A DNA stretch of 32,000 bases from Halomicronema hongdechloris C2206 (GTDB lineage: Bacteria; Cyanobacteriota; Cyanobacteriia; Phormidesmidales; Phormidesmidaceae). The notes under the pieces are model-generated. The model made no database searches. It was not told the DNA's origin and was given only the letters and a program-made list of their open reading frames with translations. Below, piece by piece: positions 4,049 through 13,085 of this stretch; position 1 is the stretch's first letter; each line of letters starts with the position of its first letter. Made by a program: the position numbers and the translations under genes. The stretch covers positions 3,120,001 to 3,152,000 of the forward strand of contig NZ_CP021983.2 of assembly GCF_002075285.3 (NCBI RefSeq), written 5' to 3'.

Positions 4049-4615
4049 CTGAATCAGCTGCCTGTCACAGTTAACCGGCAAGATATGAGGCTGCTTAGAC
4101 CACACCAATTGTTCCTCTTCCACTAATTGATGCAGTAGTCGCGTGATAGTCACCCGAGTGCTACCAATCGTTTCGGCGATTTCCTGGTGGGTGGGACGAA
4201 AGGGCAATCGCCATCCCTGACCGACGGGATAGCCCAAATTCATCCCCAACCACTGGAGAAACTGCATCAAGCGACAGTCGACCCGCCGACTATGGAGAAT
4301 ATACAAAAGCTGTTGAGCCTGTTGTAGGTGAGCCGCCGAGACGCGGGCAGTGAGTTGATACTGGGAATCCAACGGCACCGCCATCACCGGCGTTAAACAC
4401 TGAATGTCGTAATGGTCGACCAAGGCCACGGCGGCCCCAACAATACTGCCCTGGCCCCAAAACCCCAAAGGCACCACCGCTCCTTCATAGTTCCAGGTAA
4501 TGGTCCTCACCACCCCAGCGTGAATGCGCCACCAATGAGACCCTCGAACTGGAATCCGAGCCGAGCGCTTGAACATCTGAGGCGCAGTATCCAAGACAGT
4601 TGCAGGCCTAGCCAT
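4016..4615 (-). CDS. Crp/Fnr-family transcriptional regulator
   Basis: 199 aa. C-terminal helix-turn-helix THQEIAETIGSTRVTITRLLHQLVEEEQL follows an effector-domain-length N-terminal region. Lies 36 nt downstream of flavodoxin on the same strand. Its 3' end overlaps the GH1 3' end by 33 nt (convergent). Confidence 0.8.
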   Translation of the reverse strand: MARPATVLDTAPQMFKRSARIPVRGSHWWRIHAGVVRTITWNYEGAVVPLGFWGQGSIVGAAVALVDHYDIQCLTPVMAVPLDSQYQLTARVSAAHLQQAQQLLYILHSRRVDCRLMQFLQWLGMNLGYPVGQGWRLPFRPTHQEIAETIGSTRVTITRLLHQLVEEEQLVWSKQPHILPVNCDRQLIQLQGRMTSLGG

Positions 4616-4651
4616 GGCATTTTCTCCTGACGACGAATACCTACCGCCTAT

Positions 4652-5164
4652 CTATAGCCCTAACTCTTGCTTGAGCTGGGCTGTCCAGGCTTGGATACGC
4701 TTAGCCGTCTTGTCAGATTCGTTGTCTTCATCCAAGGCCAACCCACAGAACTTGCCATGCCGCAACGCTCTGGACTCATTGAAGTCATAATCATCGGCAG
4801 GCCAATACCCCACTGTCTTGCCCCCCAGAGCCGTAATTTTCTCTTCCAAGATGCCGATGGCATCCATGAAATTATCGGCATAGCCCACCTGGTCACCGGT
4901 GCCAAAATAGGCCACGGTCTTGCCACTGAAGTCCATGTCATCAAGCTCTGGAAACGCCCCATCCCAGTCACTTTGTAGCTCACCAATATCCCAAGTAGGG
5001 CAACCAATGATCAGACAGTCATATTCCGCCATCTGGTCCTCGTCTCCATCGGCAATGTCATGTAAGGCCACGACCGCCTCACCGCCCAAGGCTGCCTGAA
5101 TTTGCTCGGCAGCATCCGCTGTCTTACCTGTAGTCGATCCATAAAAGAGTCCAATGGTTGCCAT
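4652..5164 (-). CDS. isiB: long-chain flavodoxin
   Basis: MATIGLFYGSTTGKTADAAEQI (FMN phosphate-binding loop), GCPTWDIGELQSDW and FGTGDQVGYADNF are classic long-chain flavodoxin motifs. 170 aa. Confidence 0.92.
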   Translation of the reverse strand: MATIGLFYGSTTGKTADAAEQIQAALGGEAVVALHDIADGDEDQMAEYDCLIIGCPTWDIGELQSDWDGAFPELDDMDFSGKTVAYFGTGDQVGYADNFMDAIGILEEKITALGGKTVGYWPADDYDFNESRALRHGKFCGLALDEDNESDKTAKRIQAWTAQLKQELGL

Positions 5165-6543: not shown

Positions 6544-6954
6544 TTATGCTCCGTAGTCAGGAGATTCACTCAGTTTATCGAGGTAGGTGATGGCCGCCTT
6601 TGCCAAAACGGTCTCTTCTAGATAATGCTTGGCGACTTCTCCAACAGTGGCTTTGAGCGCCTGGGCATGACGTTCGGGATTGAGGAGTTGCTGGCGCAGC
6701 GTTGTGAGGCGATGATGGGGCGACTGTTGGATGTCGGTGAACTCAGCATCGATGATGGCCAGGGCTTCAGTTTCGGTGGTGACGCTGGGATGCCGAGCCT
6801 GAAGCTGGGTGAGTAGCGCTTGCAGGTCAGCGATCGCCTGTTTAACCTTTGGGTCACTCGGATGGTTATTTTGAGTCTCGATGTAGGTTTCAACTTGCTC
6901 AAAAATTTGCACTTTTTCGGCTTTGGGAAAATGGTATTTCGAACTCTCAGTCAT
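6544..6954 (-). CDS. hypothetical all-helical 136-aa protein, last gene of the NACHT-ParDE string
   Basis: Intact ORF. Its ATG (6952-6954) overlaps the TGA (6951-6953) of the frame-corrected ParE reading frame (ATGA overlap). Gln/Leu/Glu-rich, no TM segment, no motif recognised. Confidence 0.6.
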   Translation of the reverse strand: MTESSKYHFPKAEKVQIFEQVETYIETQNNHPSDPKVKQAIADLQALLTQLQARHPSVTTETEALAIIDAEFTDIQQSPHHRLTTLRQQLLNPERHAQALKATVGEVAKHYLEETVLAKAAITYLDKLSESPDYGA

Positions 6955-7272
6955 GGCTCCGGCTCCTGTTCCAAAATGAATTCCAGATTTTGAGCCCCGT
7001 GGAGGACTCGAATAATCTCAACGGCTTCGGGGTGTATTTGATAGAATGATATGTTTGTTGAAGCCTTTGATGGGATATTGACGCACTTGAGCGAGTTTTG
7101 GCGTTGTGAAACCGCTCAATTTTCCAATTGCAGGTAACTCGGCAATGCGTTGGAAAGTAGCCTCGGCGGCATAGATAAAGCGATCTCCCGCATCAAGATT
7201 ATCTCGACTGATGTATGTAGCATGGTCAATTAGATCTTGAATAACAACGGGGCGTTTGATTAGATTAGCCAT
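6951..7272 (-). pseudogene. parE: ParE/RelE-family toxin, interrupted by a frameshift near 7044-7050
   Basis: ORF 7018..7272 encodes a ParE-like N-terminal part (...VRQYPIKGFNKHII) and then stops after LSNTPRSR. The adjacent frame continues from 7046 as FYQIHPEAVEIIRVLHGAQNLEFILEQEPEP*, the canonical ParE C-terminus (IFY...I.RVLHG). A 1-nt insertion or 2-nt deletion in AAACATATCATTCTATCAA would explain it. Confidence 0.75.
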
Positions 7273-7522
7273 GCTGAGATTGATCGCTCTGATTCTTGCG
7301 TACGTTCGAGCGAATGGTTTCCCAGTCGGCAGCGGTCATCGGGGTTGCCTCGCCCGATTCTAGTCCTTCAAGGAGAAGCGGTTCGAGATGTTCCTGGCGG
7401 GCTTTATCTTGCTGAATTAGAGCCTGGATGTAGGCATCTGCCGTACTGAATTCACCAGAGTCGATGCGAGCTTGCAGGTAAGCAGTTAGGGCTTCAGGAA
7501 GGGAGACAGTGAAAGTTGTCAT
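7265..7522 (-). CDS. parD: ParD-family (RHH/CopG-like) antitoxin
   Basis: 85 aa. MTTFTVSLPEALTAYLQARIDSGEFSTADAYIQALIQQD is typical of the ParD antitoxin family. Its stop overlaps the parE start by 8 nt (ATGGCTAA-type overlap). Confidence 0.8.
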   Translation of the reverse strand: MTTFTVSLPEALTAYLQARIDSGEFSTADAYIQALIQQDKARQEHLEPLLLEGLESGEATPMTAADWETIRSNVRKNQSDQSQHG

Positions 7523-7549
7523 GGTTTTCTCAGGGGAAGGACGGCGATT

Positions 7550-10500
7550 TTATCGGCTATGGATTGGGGTCTGGGGGATGCTCATAGTAGCGATCAACCC
7601 GCCCGAAGTTTTGGCCTCTGTAGCATTGGGGAAAACATATGTCGTTTGGCCAGGAGCTATCTGACCTTCATTTTGAATTTCTAATTTTGCAGTTTGAATT
7701 GCCTCCTGCCAGATTTCGTAGTTGTAGAACTTGCAGCGGTTTTGGATAGCGGCGATAGTAGAAATAAGACTAATGTTATCCATTCGCTGACAGATTCGCC
7801 AAAGCTCGGCAATAGCTATAGGAAACCCGACTTTCTTAAGGGCATCACAACATTTTCTGTATCTATCTGTATGCTCATATATCCCAGCATAGGGATTTCT
7901 TCTCATTTTTAAGCCTTGCCTTAGTTCATCCAATAGTGCTTCAGTAGCCCTTTTGATGTCTGATCTGCTATCTAATTTGATACTTAAATCTCCTAAAACT
8001 TCAGTGGCTTTAATACGACGATACGGATCTATTTCTTTTGCAAGAATATATCTAAGTTTTAAAAGTGCTTTTTCGCAATCTAAGTTATCTAACGCCTGGA
8101 TGGAATCTCTATACAGGGAAGTGTTTTTATTTTTCCTGCTATCTTTGACTGCTTTAACCAAAGCAGGAATTATCTTATCGTTTTTTACCTGACTTGTGAG
8201 TTTGACAAGTGCATTGGCAGCCATCTCTCGCAAAGACCAGTCTCGCTCTTTCAGTGTTATAAGCAGCTCTGAAAAAGCCTCTTCACAACCTAGATTACCT
8301 AATCCGAAAGCGGCAAATTTACGAACATCTGGGTATTGGCTTTTTATCGCTCTCTGTAGCAATGGAATAGCTCCCTCACTGTTAAATTTATCCAAAGTGT
8401 ATGTAACACAAGCTTGAACTTTAATTTCTTGACGTTCTAAAGCATCTAAAAATATTGTTTTAAGGATGGGGATAGCATGCACAGGATCTAACTTGCTCAA
8501 TGAGCTAATAACTAAACAAGCTCTATGCTTGTCTGTTATTCTTAACCCTGACTCGATTGATTTTTTAAGCTCTTGGACAGCATTATTAGTACCTAGTCGA
8601 GCCAGAGAATTAGCTGCGGCTTTTACGACTTCATCTTGCGAATCATTTAATGCCTGACTTAAAGCTGAAATAGATTCCCCAGAATCCAGGTATCCCAGGG
8701 CCAAAACTGCGCGAATTCTAACAATAGCATCTTCATGCTTGCTAAGGTGGATCAAGCCAGAAATAGTTTTTTCACTCCTCAAGTAGTGGACCAAAACTAT
8801 TGCGGACTTCAATCCTGGATCGGATTTCAATTTTTCCAATGAATAAAAAATTTCCTTAGACGAATCTAAAGAAACTTTAGTGAATCCAAACTCAGATTCT
8901 TCAAGATTGGAATCGGAATGGATAGATTCTTTAACGTCTCGAAATAATTCTGGAATTATTTCTTTGCAACCCAAACTTGCCAATTCAAACAATATACTAC
9001 GTCGCTTTTTAGCATAATTCCATCCATAACTATCTGGATCAGCATTAGTGATGAATTCACTTAAAACTGGGATTGCCTCCTGTTTATCAAAAATCGCTAA
9101 TATTTGAGCTGCATTAAAACGAGCAGAAAAATTCTGGCTTTTAAGTAAATTCAAGAATTTTGAAACATGATTCTCTATGTCCAACGGTCTTATTAAATTT
9201 GATATGCTAGCGTTGGTTCCCCATATCAAATCCAAATCATCGAGTCCATCAAATATATCTTTATCATAATCTTCCAAGAAATCAATTAGACTCGGAACCC
9301 CTATTTCGGCATTGAGCATTAACAAGGCAGTTGCCGCCTCTCGGCGAGTATGAATTTCATGTTTTCTTTGTGATAACTTCAGAAGATGAGGAATAGCTAG
9401 TGAGCTACCCAGTTTTCCTAATGAGATAGTGCTATACTTAGCCAGTATCTTAATAGCTTCCTCCGATGAGGTGTTTGCTAGTGCTCGGATAATATTTCGC
9501 TCCAACCTTTGTTTCGAGAGATTTTCCTCTATTGGAGTATTTCTGTTCCGGCATTTTTTTCGAAGGATAGGTAACTTCTCTAACCATGATTGGTTAATAA
9601 AATGATCGTCTCCCTCTTCAAGAATCTTCTTCAATGCAGGAATCGCCGATGCTGAGCGAGCTTTATCCAAAAGTTTTACTTTGAGCTGTAAAGGATTCTC
9701 TTTACATCCGGTGATTAGCTGAACAGTTTGCTCTTGAAAACTTGGTTTCACCTCTCCCGCCAATTTCGCTCCCAGCATCAAATCCACATCATCGATCGCC
9801 AGTTTCACAACCCGCAGCGCCTGTTCCTCCTCATTCACCAGGGCCAGCATCAGGGCCACGGGTTCGGTCCACTTCAACAGATTGAGGTAGTCTCGCTTCA
9901 GTCGATCGTCGCTTAGCTCTGGCAGCAGCCGCAGCAACTGTTCCGCGGCGTAATATTCCTGAATCAGTTGGTGGCGAAACTCGATGTGTTCTTCAAGGGT
10001 GGGCTGTTTCACCGGCTGCAGCAGGTGATAGTCCAGCAGGTCTTGCAGCCAGCGTTCGGCACAGGCTCGGGCATTGGCTCTACCCTCTTGCTGCAAGCAG
10101 TCCGCCAACACCGCCTCCGCCTCTTCCCGAGGCATGGACAGGCGAAACTCAACCGGGTCTTGGTCATGCATCAGGGCAAAGGCCAGATGGCGCAGTAGTT
10201 TGGGCCACTGCTTTCTGGAATCAACCGGGGCATCTTCCTGAATCGCCTGATGCTCCTCAGTTCCTTGGTCATACAGCTGAGTAAACTCGCGAAACGCCAA
10301 CCCCAAATTGGCGGGCACCTCGCCGTTCTGGGCAAACACCCGACAGAGCATCCACAGTAGCAGGGGCGTTTCGGCAAACTTCCGCAGCCGGTCTCCTTGC
10401 AGTTGCTGAAACAGGCGATCGCCTTCCTCACGTAAATAGCCCCGCACAAACGCCTGCATTTGCGGTGCCGTCAGGGGCAACATCTTCAGGGTTTTGGTGA

Positions 10501-11419
10501 TGCCCAGGGTGCCGCCCACGCTTAGGTCGCGGGTGGAGACAATCATCGGGGTGGTGGCGCGGTTGCGATCGCGAAAATTGGTCACCTCTGTTCGGTAGTC
10601 TTCTGGGAGTTCGTTCAAGCCATCCAGCAACAGCAGCAGCCTGCCCTGCCGTAACAAGCGCTCAATCTCGGCAATCTCCAGCGGCAGCTCATGACCACTG
10701 AAATAGTCTTGAATCAGATGCTCAAGGGTGGAAGTACAGCGGCGCAGCTTCACCAGCACCGGGATTTTTGCAGCAGGATTCTGCAATGCGTTGCTGGCCT
10801 CTTCCCACAGCAGCCGTTCCAGCGATGTCGATTTCCCCGAACCCGGTTTGCCAATCAGCAGCACATGCTCCGCCGCATAGTTGCGTAGTCCCGCCAGCAC
10901 ATCCCACTGTTCAACCTGTTCCCTGTTCTCTATTCTCTCTACATCTCTGCCTTCTCGATCTTCCTGGGGCTTAACGGTCTCTACCCGATCTCTGCCTTCT
11001 CGATCTTCCTGGGGCTTAACGGTCTCTACCCGCAGCTTTAGGAGCGGTGAAAACTTGGGTCGTGGCACTTGCTTGCGGCCTGCAACCGTCGTACGAGTGT
11101 AGACCTCTTGCCGCTCGCGATAGTCTTCGTGATTACGGATAGACTGCAAATAGGGCTCAAAATCAATATGATCTGAACGCTGGATCGCCTTCGGCGCAAA
11201 CCGCTGCTCCAGCAGATCAGTCAATGGGTCTAAGCCGCAGCCGGTGGAGCCGGTGGCCCAATTGAGCAGATCCGCCACGCGGTTGCCCTGGGGGGCCGAT
11301 GGCCCACTAATGATGCCAGGGGGCAGGTTCAGCGCCACCAGGAACTCCTCGAACTGGGGCTGGGGTAGGGCGGATAATTGTCGAAACAGATGCGATCGCA
11401 GCTCAGAATCACCTGACAT
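7550..11419 (-). CDS. STAND NTPase: N-terminal helical adaptor-like domain, NACHT P-loop NTPase, C-terminal HEAT/ARM repeat array (1289 aa)
   Basis: Walker A LLIGKPGSGKST (codons at 10826-10852), Walker B LLLLLDGLNE, then MIVSTRD (sensor-1-like). The N-terminal 75 aa read LFRQLSALPQPQFEEFLVALNLPPGIISGPSAPQGNRVADLLNWATGS. From about aa 565 there are many HEAT-like units (AIPALKKILEEGD, VRIRAVLALGYLDSGESISALSQALND, VRKFAAFGLGNLGCEEAFSELL and others). Single uninterrupted ORF. Confidence 0.9.
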   Translation of the reverse strand: MSGDSELRSHLFRQLSALPQPQFEEFLVALNLPPGIISGPSAPQGNRVADLLNWATGSTGCGLDPLTDLLEQRFAPKAIQRSDHIDFEPYLQSIRNHEDYRERQEVYTRTTVAGRKQVPRPKFSPLLKLRVETVKPQEDREGRDRVETVKPQEDREGRDVERIENREQVEQWDVLAGLRNYAAEHVLLIGKPGSGKSTSLERLLWEEASNALQNPAAKIPVLVKLRRCTSTLEHLIQDYFSGHELPLEIAEIERLLRQGRLLLLLDGLNELPEDYRTEVTNFRDRNRATTPMIVSTRDLSVGGTLGITKTLKMLPLTAPQMQAFVRGYLREEGDRLFQQLQGDRLRKFAETPLLLWMLCRVFAQNGEVPANLGLAFREFTQLYDQGTEEHQAIQEDAPVDSRKQWPKLLRHLAFALMHDQDPVEFRLSMPREEAEAVLADCLQQEGRANARACAERWLQDLLDYHLLQPVKQPTLEEHIEFRHQLIQEYYAAEQLLRLLPELSDDRLKRDYLNLLKWTEPVALMLALVNEEEQALRVVKLAIDDVDLMLGAKLAGEVKPSFQEQTVQLITGCKENPLQLKVKLLDKARSASAIPALKKILEEGDDHFINQSWLEKLPILRKKCRNRNTPIEENLSKQRLERNIIRALANTSSEEAIKILAKYSTISLGKLGSSLAIPHLLKLSQRKHEIHTRREAATALLMLNAEIGVPSLIDFLEDYDKDIFDGLDDLDLIWGTNASISNLIRPLDIENHVSKFLNLLKSQNFSARFNAAQILAIFDKQEAIPVLSEFITNADPDSYGWNYAKKRRSILFELASLGCKEIIPELFRDVKESIHSDSNLEESEFGFTKVSLDSSKEIFYSLEKLKSDPGLKSAIVLVHYLRSEKTISGLIHLSKHEDAIVRIRAVLALGYLDSGESISALSQALNDSQDEVVKAAANSLARLGTNNAVQELKKSIESGLRITDKHRACLVISSLSKLDPVHAIPILKTIFLDALERQEIKVQACVTYTLDKFNSEGAIPLLQRAIKSQYPDVRKFAAFGLGNLGCEEAFSELLITLKERDWSLREMAANALVKLTSQVKNDKIIPALVKAVKDSRKNKNTSLYRDSIQALDNLDCEKALLKLRYILAKEIDPYRRIKATEVLGDLSIKLDSRSDIKRATEALLDELRQGLKMRRNPYAGIYEHTDRYRKCCDALKKVGFPIAIAELWRICQRMDNISLISTIAAIQNRCKFYNYEIWQEAIQTAKLEIQNEGQIAPGQTTYVFPNATEAKTSGGLIATMSIPQTPIHSR
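10943..11032 (-). repeat. perfect 45-bp tandem duplication inside the NACHT gene linker
   Basis: ATCTCTGCCTTCTCGATCTTCCTGGGGCTTAACGGTCTCTACCCG occurs at 10943-10987 and again at 10988-11032. It encodes the doubled 15-aa unit seen as VETVKPQEDREGRDRVETVKPQEDREGRD, between the N-terminal domain and the NACHT core. Confidence 0.95.
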
Positions 11420-11891: not shown

Positions 11892-13085
11892 TCAGGGCTC
11901 TCCTGCCTGGGTCAGCCGCATCCACATCGGCATCTGGGTGTTTGCCCCAGCCTCGATCCGCTCTAAGGCTGTCATCATCTCGACCTTGACATCAAATTTA
12001 GATTCCTGCTCAAGCGCCCGACGGAGCGATTCAACTGCCGAGTGATCGCCAATTTCGTTTAAGAACCGGGCAGCGCGCCAGCGTACTAGCTCAGAGGGAT
12101 CGCTCAGGGCTGCAATCATGGTGGCCATGGCGCTAGGACTAGGATCGCCAATATCGCTCAGGGCATCACCTGCAGTCCGGCGGACGATGGGTGAGGGATC
12201 TTGCCGGGCGAGACGACAGAGGGGGGCAACCGCAGTCGTCAGGGCACTGGCCCCGAGTAGCGCTGCGGCCCAACGCCGGATTGTGCTTTTGTCATCATCG
12301 AGTACGGCCACCACTGCCGATACAGTCTCGGCAGTCACGTCTAGCTGCTGCAGTGCCTTAAGTCGACGTTTCCAGTCGGGGTGGTTTAACTCAGCGATGA
12401 GGGCTTGCTGTTGGTCCGTTTTGTCAGCAGGGGGGGCATCGGAACGATCTTCAACCGCCACGGCTTCAAGCTGGGTCAGTGCTTGGGAGTCAAGCAAACT
12501 ATCGATTTCATCGGCCACCATCTGGGCCACAAGGTGGGGGTCCCCCGCTGGCGCTTGATAAGGCTCCCAGCGTCGCTCTATCACATAGTCAGCCCCAGTC
12601 GCACTAATGGTTCGCTGTAGCGCCTGAGCGAAACGGTCGGGTAGGGCAACGCGGGCCTGCTGCCCGTCAGCTGCGATCGCACGTACTTGCACTGGAATGC
12701 CCCGAAATACCTGAACGGCTACATCGAGTTGGCCCAAATTTGAGCTAGACGAGGGCGCACTCGAATTATCCTCAGTGGGATGCAGCGGCTGGGATAGCTG
12801 CGTGAGCAGCTTCGAATCAGCATGGTCTGCTACACCAATTAAAGCCGCCGCCTTGGCGAGAATCGGTTGCCAATCTGATCTGCCTTGGCGAGTGAGGGTA
12901 ACGAAATCTTTGACCACGAAGACAGACTGAATCGCCTCAATTGCCAGCAGTTGCTGAACCCATTCAGGGGTATTGGGCGAGGGGTTACCTTTCTGGAAGG
13001 TCAGTGCTTTGTCGCTAATGGTCTCATCTAGATTGAGCTTGATGCAGTTAGGGCTAGGGGTGGTTTCGATAGAAAGCAATCGCAT
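11892..13085 (-). CDS. CvfC/YpgR-like protein: Nfu/NifU N-terminal-like domain plus PBS-lyase HEAT-like repeats
   Basis: The N-terminus MRLLSIETTPSPNCIKLNLDE...FVTLTR resembles the Nfu_N scaffold-like domain. The C-terminal third has HEAT-like units (IRRWAAALLGA, VRRTAGDALSDIGDPS, VRWRAARFLNEIGDHSAVESL). Confidence 0.7.
   Translation of the reverse strand: MRLLSIETTPSPNCIKLNLDETISDKALTFQKGNPSPNTPEWVQQLLAIEAIQSVFVVKDFVTLTRQGRSDWQPILAKAAALIGVADHADSKLLTQLSQPLHPTEDNSSAPSSSSNLGQLDVAVQVFRGIPVQVRAIAADGQQARVALPDRFAQALQRTISATGADYVIERRWEPYQAPAGDPHLVAQMVADEIDSLLDSQALTQLEAVAVEDRSDAPPADKTDQQQALIAELNHPDWKRRLKALQQLDVTAETVSAVVAVLDDDKSTIRRWAAALLGASALTTAVAPLCRLARQDPSPIVRRTAGDALSDIGDPSPSAMATMIAALSDPSELVRWRAARFLNEIGDHSAVESLRRALEQESKFDVKVEMMTALERIEAGANTQMPMWMRLTQAGEP

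Follow-up and report, generated by a model that had tools for sequence, protein, structure and literature searches.

What kind of system is encoded by the genes for a NACHT-HEAT protein, a ParD antitoxin, a frameshifted ParE toxin and a 136-aa protein (ORF136) that follow one another in Halomicronema hongdechloris C2206? These four co-oriented genes lie on the minus strand at positions 6544–11419 of the window, the 32,000-nt stretch of contig NZ_CP021983.2 (positions 3,120,001–3,152,000) that was analysed here. An earlier note on this DNA had listed them, and all four open reading frames are present as it described, with the same spacings: 27 nt between the NACHT and parD genes, an 8-nt overlap of parD with parE and an ATGA common to ORF136 and the restored ParE frame. 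In our reading the locus probably encodes a cyanobacterial conflict sensor resembling NOD-like receptors (NLR), i.e. a bacterial NACHT protein, which is split in two genes, recruits its effectors through an N-terminal module and carries ParDE as an accessory. The core of the system is formed by the NACHT NTPase, a HEAT array and a conserved helical C-terminal domain of ~110 aa.

The identity of this last domain emerged from the relatives of ORF136. More than 200 homologues share 60–87% identity with it, and those with a named organism are all cyanobacterial. A locus scan with one genome per species gave 59 loci (numbered L001 and so on below), 43 of them evaluable with at least 2 kb of upstream sequence, and 34 of these 43 have a co-oriented NACHT-family gene upstream. 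In L030, L032, L034, L038, L044, L061 and L065 the NACHT-HEAT frame continues through the region homologous to ORF136; these seven in-frame fusions therefore identify ORF136 as the C-terminal domain of the NLR, which is separately encoded here. The earlier note had taken ORF136 for an unknown extra gene, possibly part of the system; the membership stands, the extra gene does not. The nine loci without an upstream NACHT gene include three wrecks of the same system (L024, L039, L053), while in L050, L051, L054 and L057 the ORF136 homologue is fused to HEAT repeats, lies downstream of a leucine-rich repeat protein or is fused to a long protein with no detectable NACHT core; the remaining two are L048 and L060. 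The exact string of NACHT-HEAT, 85-aa, ParE and 136-aa genes recurs in two unrelated contexts, so that the arrangement is kept in other cyanobacterial genomes, as the earlier note had proposed to check. Between the window and other ParDE-type loci, ORF136 is 65–82% identical (76–82% in the closer ones), the NACHT core 46–49% and the array 24–28%; ORF136 is thus the most conserved part of the system.

Within the window, the locus is laid out as follows:

7550–11419, minus strand: gene for the NACHT-HEAT STAND NTPase (1289 aa), the putative sensor/switch subunit; Pfam NACHT and HEAT_2, orthologues at 34 of 43 evaluable loci
11195–11404, minus strand: N-terminal putative adaptor module, aa 6–75, of a four-helix family that resembles effector-associated domains (EAD) and has no Pfam entry
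10943–11032, minus strand: perfect 45-nt tandem duplication (2.0 copies, 100% identity) within the acidic linker that joins module and NACHT (aa 130–159, RVETVKPQEDREGRD twice)
10427–10864, minus strand: NACHT NTPase core, with Walker A and Walker B inside
7805–9697, minus strand: HEAT repeat array, the putative sensor, aa ~575–1205, placed by Pfam and composition
7706–7735, minus strand: post-array motif CKFYNYEIWQ, conserved and common to the orthologous NACHT proteins
7550–7639, minus strand: NACHT tail with the first copy of a junction motif (YVFPNATEAK...), placed by comparison with orthologues
7265–7522, minus strand: parD antitoxin, 85 aa, intact; TIGR02606, 66–93% identity to ParD of ten other loci
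6951–7272, minus strand: parE toxin, disrupted; repaired product 107 aa, PF05016 after repair
6544–6954, minus strand: ORF136 (XM38_029770), detached C-terminal constant domain of the NLR; >200 homologues, fusions to NACHT-HEAT
6877–6939, minus strand: second copy of the junction motif, within ORF136, by motif match
6571–6852, minus strand: helical body of ORF136, from predicted helices

The NACHT/STAND NTPase and the HEAT array recognised in the earlier note are both borne out by Pfam: NACHT (PF05729) matches aa 186–331 with 40.5 bits against a cut-off of 26.7 (E 3.3e-10) and HEAT_2 matches at E = 1.3e-36. The Walker A motif GKPGSGKST (10826–10852, aa 190–198) fits the P-loop GxxxxGK[ST], and the Walker B motif reads LLLLLDGLNE (10610–10639). 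Among 31 NACHT family members, the D, G and N of the latter are found in 31/31 and the E in 30/31, i.e. the family motif is DG[LV]NE, with an Asn in all 31 in place of the first acidic residue after the hydrophobic position; the canonical NACHT Walker B is hhhhD[GAS]hDE (Kibby et al., bioRxiv 10.1101/2022.07.19.500537). The Pfam match and the P-loop assign the protein to the NACHT clade of STAND NTPases, with a variant Walker B. An exact look-up of the NACHT protein returned no record, and ORF136 was retrieved as XM38_029770 at 100% identity. ParD matches TIGR02606 (1.9e-12, 47 bits, cut-off 46.2). The ParE open reading frame as read covers 7272..7018; its restored frame stops at 6951, and the full PF05016 match (9e-14) is obtained after frame repair only. 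An acidic linker with repeats similar to the 45-nt linker duplication of the window was seen in L007.

What precedes Walker A differs among these proteins. The module occupies this region in the window and in L004, L012, L016, L017, L018, L035 and L055; the region is a Trypsin_2 domain (2.6e-19) in L030 and relatives, EAD10 (1.7e-24) in L032 and a Cap5-type HNH domain (1.8e-8 to 8ysq_A) in L021, L038 and L065, and in ten loci neither an effector nor an adaptor is present at the N-terminus. The domain of L021, L038 and L065 is Cys-rich; Pfam gave no support for HNH, but Cap5-type HNH-SAVED structures confirm it. Fused effectors (Trypsin_2, HNH) or another EAD (EAD10) thus take the position of the module in related core proteins, which is one of the traits that characterise EADs.

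The module was described in the earlier note as a short helical N-terminus without an enzymatic domain. In agreement with this, an AlphaFold2 (AF2) model from a 49-sequence alignment has four helices over ~70 aa, with a predicted local distance difference test score (pLDDT) of 92.8, and no catalytic family matches; the module is a small, non-enzymatic, mostly all-alpha domain, as EADs are. The N-terminal 185 aa of the NACHT-HEAT protein gave no Pfam match even at E <= 10, the module had no NCBIfam match, and comparison of the module with PDB sequence profiles gave chance-level matches only. Word-index protein searches with the module returned just 1 and 3 matches; an exhaustive HMMER search over 1.84 billion representatives (E <= 1e-3) recovered 646 clusters of homologues. 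In the best 150 of the 646, the module is N-terminal in 78, C-terminal in 55 and internal in 17, and it is repeated within 8 of these 150 proteins. Seven tandem copies make up part of P0122 (810 aa, Nodosilinea sp. AN01ver1) and five are found in P0123 (1583 aa), and such multi-module proteins could serve as multivalent hubs. Across 143 of the best 150, the Pfam partners of the module are TIR_2 (26), TIR (16), pentapeptide repeats (14), AAA_16 (12), NB-ARC (10), TRADD-like_N (9), NACHT (7), EAD1 (5), CHAT (5) and nSTAND1/3. Other fusions combine the module with a DUF676 esterase, with CHAT, with EAD1 or with nSTAND1 and FGE-sulfatase. The family is thus placed terminally both on core NTPases and on diverse effector or signalling domains, a further trait of EADs.

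A first metagenome scan gave no result, and a later one yielded twelve more loci. In L070 (metagenome contig JAAUYH010228609.1, 4082–7292), a TIR_2 protein with a C-terminal module (4082–4870) is followed, after 131 nt, by a gene for a module-NB-ARC-WD40 protein. Identity between the two modules is 63%, versus at most 55–57% (median 39%) with 144 other members; adjacent modules that are mutually closest represent the coupling pattern that defines EADs in Kaur et al. (2020, PMC7159879). By sequence, the module is not a member of EAD1-11 or of the Death-like domains of bacteria (bDLD), and the supplement of Kaur 2020, searched for module motifs, contains none. The Foldseek and profile comparison that the earlier note had proposed for aa 1–80 revealed no significant match to adaptor or EAD families: the best Foldseek match of the module in PDB has an E of 2.2, and 10 of the 21 weak matches are PYD, CARD, DD or PYD-like CENP-N domains, with a query-normalised TM-score of about 0.5 (0.49–0.59). 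The Death-fold resemblance of the model is a lead, not a result, and with four helices rather than six and no profile match the modelled module cannot be assigned to the Death-like superfamily. Altogether, the module behaves as an EAD in the architectural sense, and the adaptor role suggested in the earlier note holds by architecture, partners and the L070 neighbourhood, not by homology to the catalogued EAD or Death families.

The second variable part of the protein is the HEAT array. In the window, the GC content of the array (7805–9697) is 0.33–0.43 versus 55–61% in the rest of the gene, and GC at third codon positions (GC3) is 0.30 versus 0.66 in the NACHT core. AT-rich arrays are also found in L002, L006, L007, L016, L018, L021, L027, L030, L032, L035, L037, L040, L041 and L044, and throughout the AT-rich loci, window included, array GC3 is 0.23–0.37 versus 0.47–0.66 for the NACHT core of the same gene. 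Five loci have arrays of host-like composition, and the high-GC arrays are interrelated (L004/L031 64%, L019/L031 58%). Besides, relatedness of the cores and of the arrays is discordant: the cores of L002 and L007 are 88% identical and their arrays 26%, those of L004 and L018 81% and 24%, whereas L018 and L037 share 61% in the arrays and 46% in the cores, and L027 and L028 77% and 32%. Arrays are therefore exchanged as units, independently of the NACHT cores. The AT-rich synonymous sites of the arrays may stem from import out of a low-GC pool or from a local mutation bias. Recent repeat shuffling within the gene, leading to an internally homogenised HEAT array, was considered and rejected, as the array has no high-identity internal DNA repeats.

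How the two halves of the split protein relate to each other is indicated by their ends. The C-terminal ~25 aa of the NACHT protein and the N-terminal ~25 aa of the small protein encoded downstream are alike in 13 of 16 split loci, over a motif of ~20 aa (local alignment against shuffles, z = 6–16). The two copies co-vary in three variants, pairing FPNATEVKIFERVEHYYE with FPKAEKVQIFEQVDTYIE, YEVNAEVFQVVENNAGKVIG with YTIHTQSSQIIEHNAGTVIG and FNIDTLHAPNAAINLGGTIYGDQIGTQN with FNIQNFNTNNAAVNLGGTIEGDQIGTQN. Fused genes have the motif once, and in the window it flanks the toxin–antitoxin (TA) cassette on both sides. Identity between the two copies at the DNA level is confined to short exact runs of <= 18 nt; the duplication is therefore old, recently duplicated junction repeats were rejected, and we infer that selection retains both copies.

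The slot between the two halves holds different cassettes in different genomes:

ParD/ParE, between NACHT-HEAT and the ORF136 homologue: 10 genome loci
DUF2281 + PIN, same slot: 7 genome loci
RelN-like antitoxin + RelE/StbE-like toxin, same slot: 9 genome loci
UPF0175-like + DUF3368, same slot: 3 genome loci

Since four unrelated TA families use one slot, ParDE looks accessory and not core. The earlier note had suggested that the tightly linked TA might be part of the system; ParDE is not a fixed member, being replaced by three other families. ORF136 is a separate gene because the ParDE cassette occupies the linker, and no cassette lies inside the fused NACHT-ORF136 genes. Over the 59 loci, a TA is found within 900 nt upstream of the ORF136 region in 29 and directly downstream in 6, the latter including the NACHT-fused L038 and L044 and the ORF136 fusions L051 and L057. 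Cassette type is independent of NACHT relatedness: the loci with the cores nearest to that of the window (71–74% identity) have no cassette (L035), a RelE-like one (L037) or PIN (L006 and L017), and the ParDE loci, with ParE 85–90% identical, have cores only 46–49% identical to the window's. TAs are found with every N-terminal type, trypsin and HNH fusions included. In L006, which has the same Nfu_N-HEAT neighbour as the window, DUF2281 + PIN replaces ParDE; downstream of ORF136 (8401–11003) this locus has two UPF0175 + DUF3368 pairs and a ParD with a truncated ParE, which suggests that displaced cassettes accumulate there. The L018 locus (Spirulina sp. metagenome-assembled genome, 2141–8408) has a NACHT gene, then DUF2281-PIN with one ORF136 copy and, beyond two small ORFs, ParDE with another, and these tandem units of cassette plus constant domain could be an intermediate in cassette exchange.

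The mechanism that we propose builds on the STAND/NLR paradigm and the EAD principle (PMC7159879, PMC8195603, bioRxiv 10.1101/2022.07.19.500537). The hypervariable, horizontally shuffled HEAT array would bind an invader-derived or infection-induced ligand, and ligand binding would free the NACHT switch and result in NTP-dependent oligomerisation. Clustered N-terminal modules would then recruit, via module-module contacts, effectors tagged with the same module (TIR, CHAT peptidase, esterase, others), the genes of which would lie elsewhere in the genome. ORF136 would rejoin NACHT-HEAT non-covalently as a constant regulatory or tethering domain, and ParDE would be an exchangeable accessory cassette, for addiction/stabilisation or as a hitchhiker, and not a required output.

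Several observations weigh against this proposal. First, 0/49 diverse module members match a catalogued EAD or Death model at E <= 1, and neither the 32-kb window nor the 16-kb loci around eight related module-NACHT genes contain a second module copy; of the earlier idea that the effector acts in trans, what stands is the existence of module-tagged effectors in the family, none of which lies in the window. Second, the AF2 model of ORF136 has five helices at aa 35–128, a disordered N-terminal stretch of 32 aa and a pLDDT of 60.7, and ORF136 has no match in Pfam, NCBIfam or PADLOC and chance-level matches only among PDB sequence profiles. On this low-confidence model the Foldseek output was meaningless, so that the structural and profile comparison proposed for the 136-aa protein ended without a usable match. 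Because the fold is moderately predicted and nothing matched, the role given to ORF136 is a guess; the IMG/VR scan contained no relatives of it.

The surroundings count on the same side, as the flanking genes are housekeeping. One flank encodes an MGDG-synthase-like glycosyltransferase, a GH1 hydrolase, a Crp regulator, a flavodoxin and a methyltransferase, the other an Nfu_N/HEAT protein, CorA, CbiG/methylase and a TPR protein. PADLOC-DB v2 returned partial repeat matches only, to HEAT-ARM_XIII (positions 576–721 of 1972) and HEAT_CxxC_PDDEXK, with no match for ParD, ParE or ORF136. With ordinary flanks and partial PADLOC matches the locus is therefore not a defence island. We infer a defence role, for which no phage link and no match to a known defence model turned up. 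Finally, this copy bears one indel in ParE and another in the NACHT tail, and TAs stand next to the ORF136 domain (29/59 upstream, 6 downstream) more often than expected of mere hitchhikers. Within the window, tRNAs and Rfam matches were absent, no terminal, inverted or flanking direct repeats delimit a mobile element around the four genes, and promoter and terminator scans remained at chance level. The 397-aa neighbour at 11892–13085 (minus strand) combines Nfu_N with a 'Virulence_fact' domain and HEAT repeats, and the same gene adjoins the NACHT gene in L006.

The frequency of TAs next to ORF136 bears on the main rival explanation, in which the TA is an integral, interchangeable output or regulatory module: the antitoxin would be removed on activation, for example by way of a fused or recruited peptidase, and the toxin (ParE, PIN or RelE-like) would arrest growth; the four TA families would then be swapped effectors, such as other defence systems also have. 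Fixed position and orientation of the cassette fit this explanation, as do genes that overlap or are tightly spaced (8 nt and ATGA here, 15–18-nt gaps with the other cassette types), cassettes directly downstream of the fused genes, and the ten loci that would otherwise have no output at their N-terminus. TA-derived toxins have been recruited into STAND-type conflict systems (Kaur et al. 2020, PMC7159879). However, L061 has neither an N-terminal domain nor a TA match, and ParE is frameshifted in the window while ParD and ORF136 are intact. Type II TAs colonise operons and variable regions. Because fused genes have no internal cassette, and TAs also accompany fused peptidase or nuclease effectors, which already supply the output, we regard a TA output as unlikely. 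It is likewise doubtful that the TA cassettes are wired into the split NLR as exchangeable modules, with the junction motif serving as recombination handle and reassembly contact and with activation gating toxin release; if true, an NLR-controlled TA would be a new way to build modular immune loci.

The two indels raise the question of whether the locus has no function left in this strain and is decaying: a TA cassette would have broken the NLR gene, and the further frameshifts would reflect pseudogenisation. The frameshift of ParE, already noticed in the earlier note, comes from the loss of 2 nt in a T-run at ~7045, as judged against five orthologues; all five are intact at this site, and a programmed frameshift was therefore rejected. 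In the NACHT gene, an A-run at ~7602–7615 lacks 1 nt relative to six orthologues, which shifts the frame of the final 19 codons and turns the conserved end of the protein, ...AKNFGRVDRYYEHPPDPNP before the stop, into TSGGLIATMSIPQTPIHSR, so that the tail copy of the junction motif is destroyed. Two indels within 600 nt, against 5–6 orthologues, would fit decay, and so would the clear wrecks among related loci: a trypsin-only remnant that retains the tail motif (L024), a trypsin start fused straight to the ORF136 body (L039), a 126-aa remnant with the tail motif at its end (L053) and a 185-aa truncated module-NACHT beside TIR fragments and a RelE/ParE toxin (L001). However, the 1289-aa frame is otherwise open, ParD and the well-conserved ORF136 are intact, and many genomes have the split arrangement with both halves intact. 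Since both are homopolymer indels, and these are the most frequent of assembly errors, such an error and real decay are not distinguishable here. The window copy may be decaying, unless the indels are assembly errors; a functionless remnant as the whole explanation is quite improbable.

Very improbable, finally, is a role as STAND regulator in the housekeeping or development of filamentous cyanobacteria, such as the monitoring of phycobilisome or photosynthesis status, to which the PBS-lyase type of the HEAT repeats (HEAT_PBS 1.7e-21, partial CpcE and NblB matches), the housekeeping flanks with the Nfu_N-HEAT neighbour kept in L006 and the conservation of ORF136, unusual for a conflict gene, would point, but the CpcE and NblB scores are far under the family cut-offs (65 vs 330 bits), and N-terminal swapping, array shuffling, frequent decay and differing contexts are signatures of conflict systems.

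The split NLR-like sensor that we favour can be placed among known systems. Like the 'hybrid' class of bacterial NACHT proteins, which is abundant in cyanobacteria (Kibby et al., bioRxiv 10.1101/2022.07.19.500537), it has a central NACHT and an N-terminal effector or EAD position that varies among close relatives, and the seven orthologous loci with a fused ORF136 domain have the 'hybrid' layout. It differs in that the C-terminal domain is a separate gene in the window and in most genomes, with a TA between the halves, in its Walker B (DG[LV]NE vs D[GAS]hDE) and in that no PADLOC model recognises the protein. With the EAD-coupled STAND and ternary systems (PMC7159879, PMC8195603) it shares a small non-catalytic domain of alpha-helices with which the core NTPase begins and which also sits terminally on TIR, caspase-like, TRADD-N and other effectors, has mutually closest adjacent copies (L070) and is replaced in orthologues by a direct effector fusion (trypsin). 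Unlike in those systems, the module is outside the Pfam EAD1-11 and Death-like models and has no adjacent partner at this locus or at the eight related loci; moreover, the ternary systems are of the vWA-MoxR type and here a single NACHT is present.

Metazoan Death-fold adaptors (PYD, CARD, DD) likewise place a short bundle of helices at the start of an NLR and account for 10/21 of the weak Foldseek matches, but they have six helices versus four in the module, and the best E is 2.2 with no profile match. From general knowledge, a comparison can also be drawn with polymorphic-toxin and orphan-cassette loci such as contact-dependent inhibition (CDI) and Rhs, reportedly treated by Zhang et al. in 2012. 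In common with these are a junction motif repeated upstream of a displaced C-terminal cassette, toxin/antidote pairs between the copies and some cassette arrays (two ORF136 copies and two TA pairs in L018, extra TA pairs downstream in L006); in contrast, the displaced C-terminal piece is constant here, the variable element is a classical type II TA rather than a toxin tip plus immunity gene, and there is no secretion context. The ParDE pair itself is a usual type II TA, with ParD (TIGR02606) and ParE (PF05016) in the overlapping antitoxin-toxin order, except that ParE is frameshifted and that the pair sits inside a split NLR gene, translationally coupled to its downstream half.

NLR-like sensors and adaptor coupling are thus already known. 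The new elements are an uncatalogued adaptor family, a split constant domain, a TA slot open to several families with a duplicated junction motif, and AT-rich shuffled arrays; a limited literature search found no description of these four. To our knowledge, very few adaptor-type bacterial NLR systems have been tested experimentally so far, and the L070 pair of a TIR-adaptor and an adaptor-STAND protein is a natural and direct test case for the model of homotypic recruitment. The natural series of split and fused forms of one NLR pinpoints a strongly conserved C-terminal constant domain. A fixed slot in an immune gene that captures four unrelated TA families bears on the clustering of TAs with defence genes, and the shuffled AT-rich arrays hint at a pool of sensor cassettes that circulates separately.

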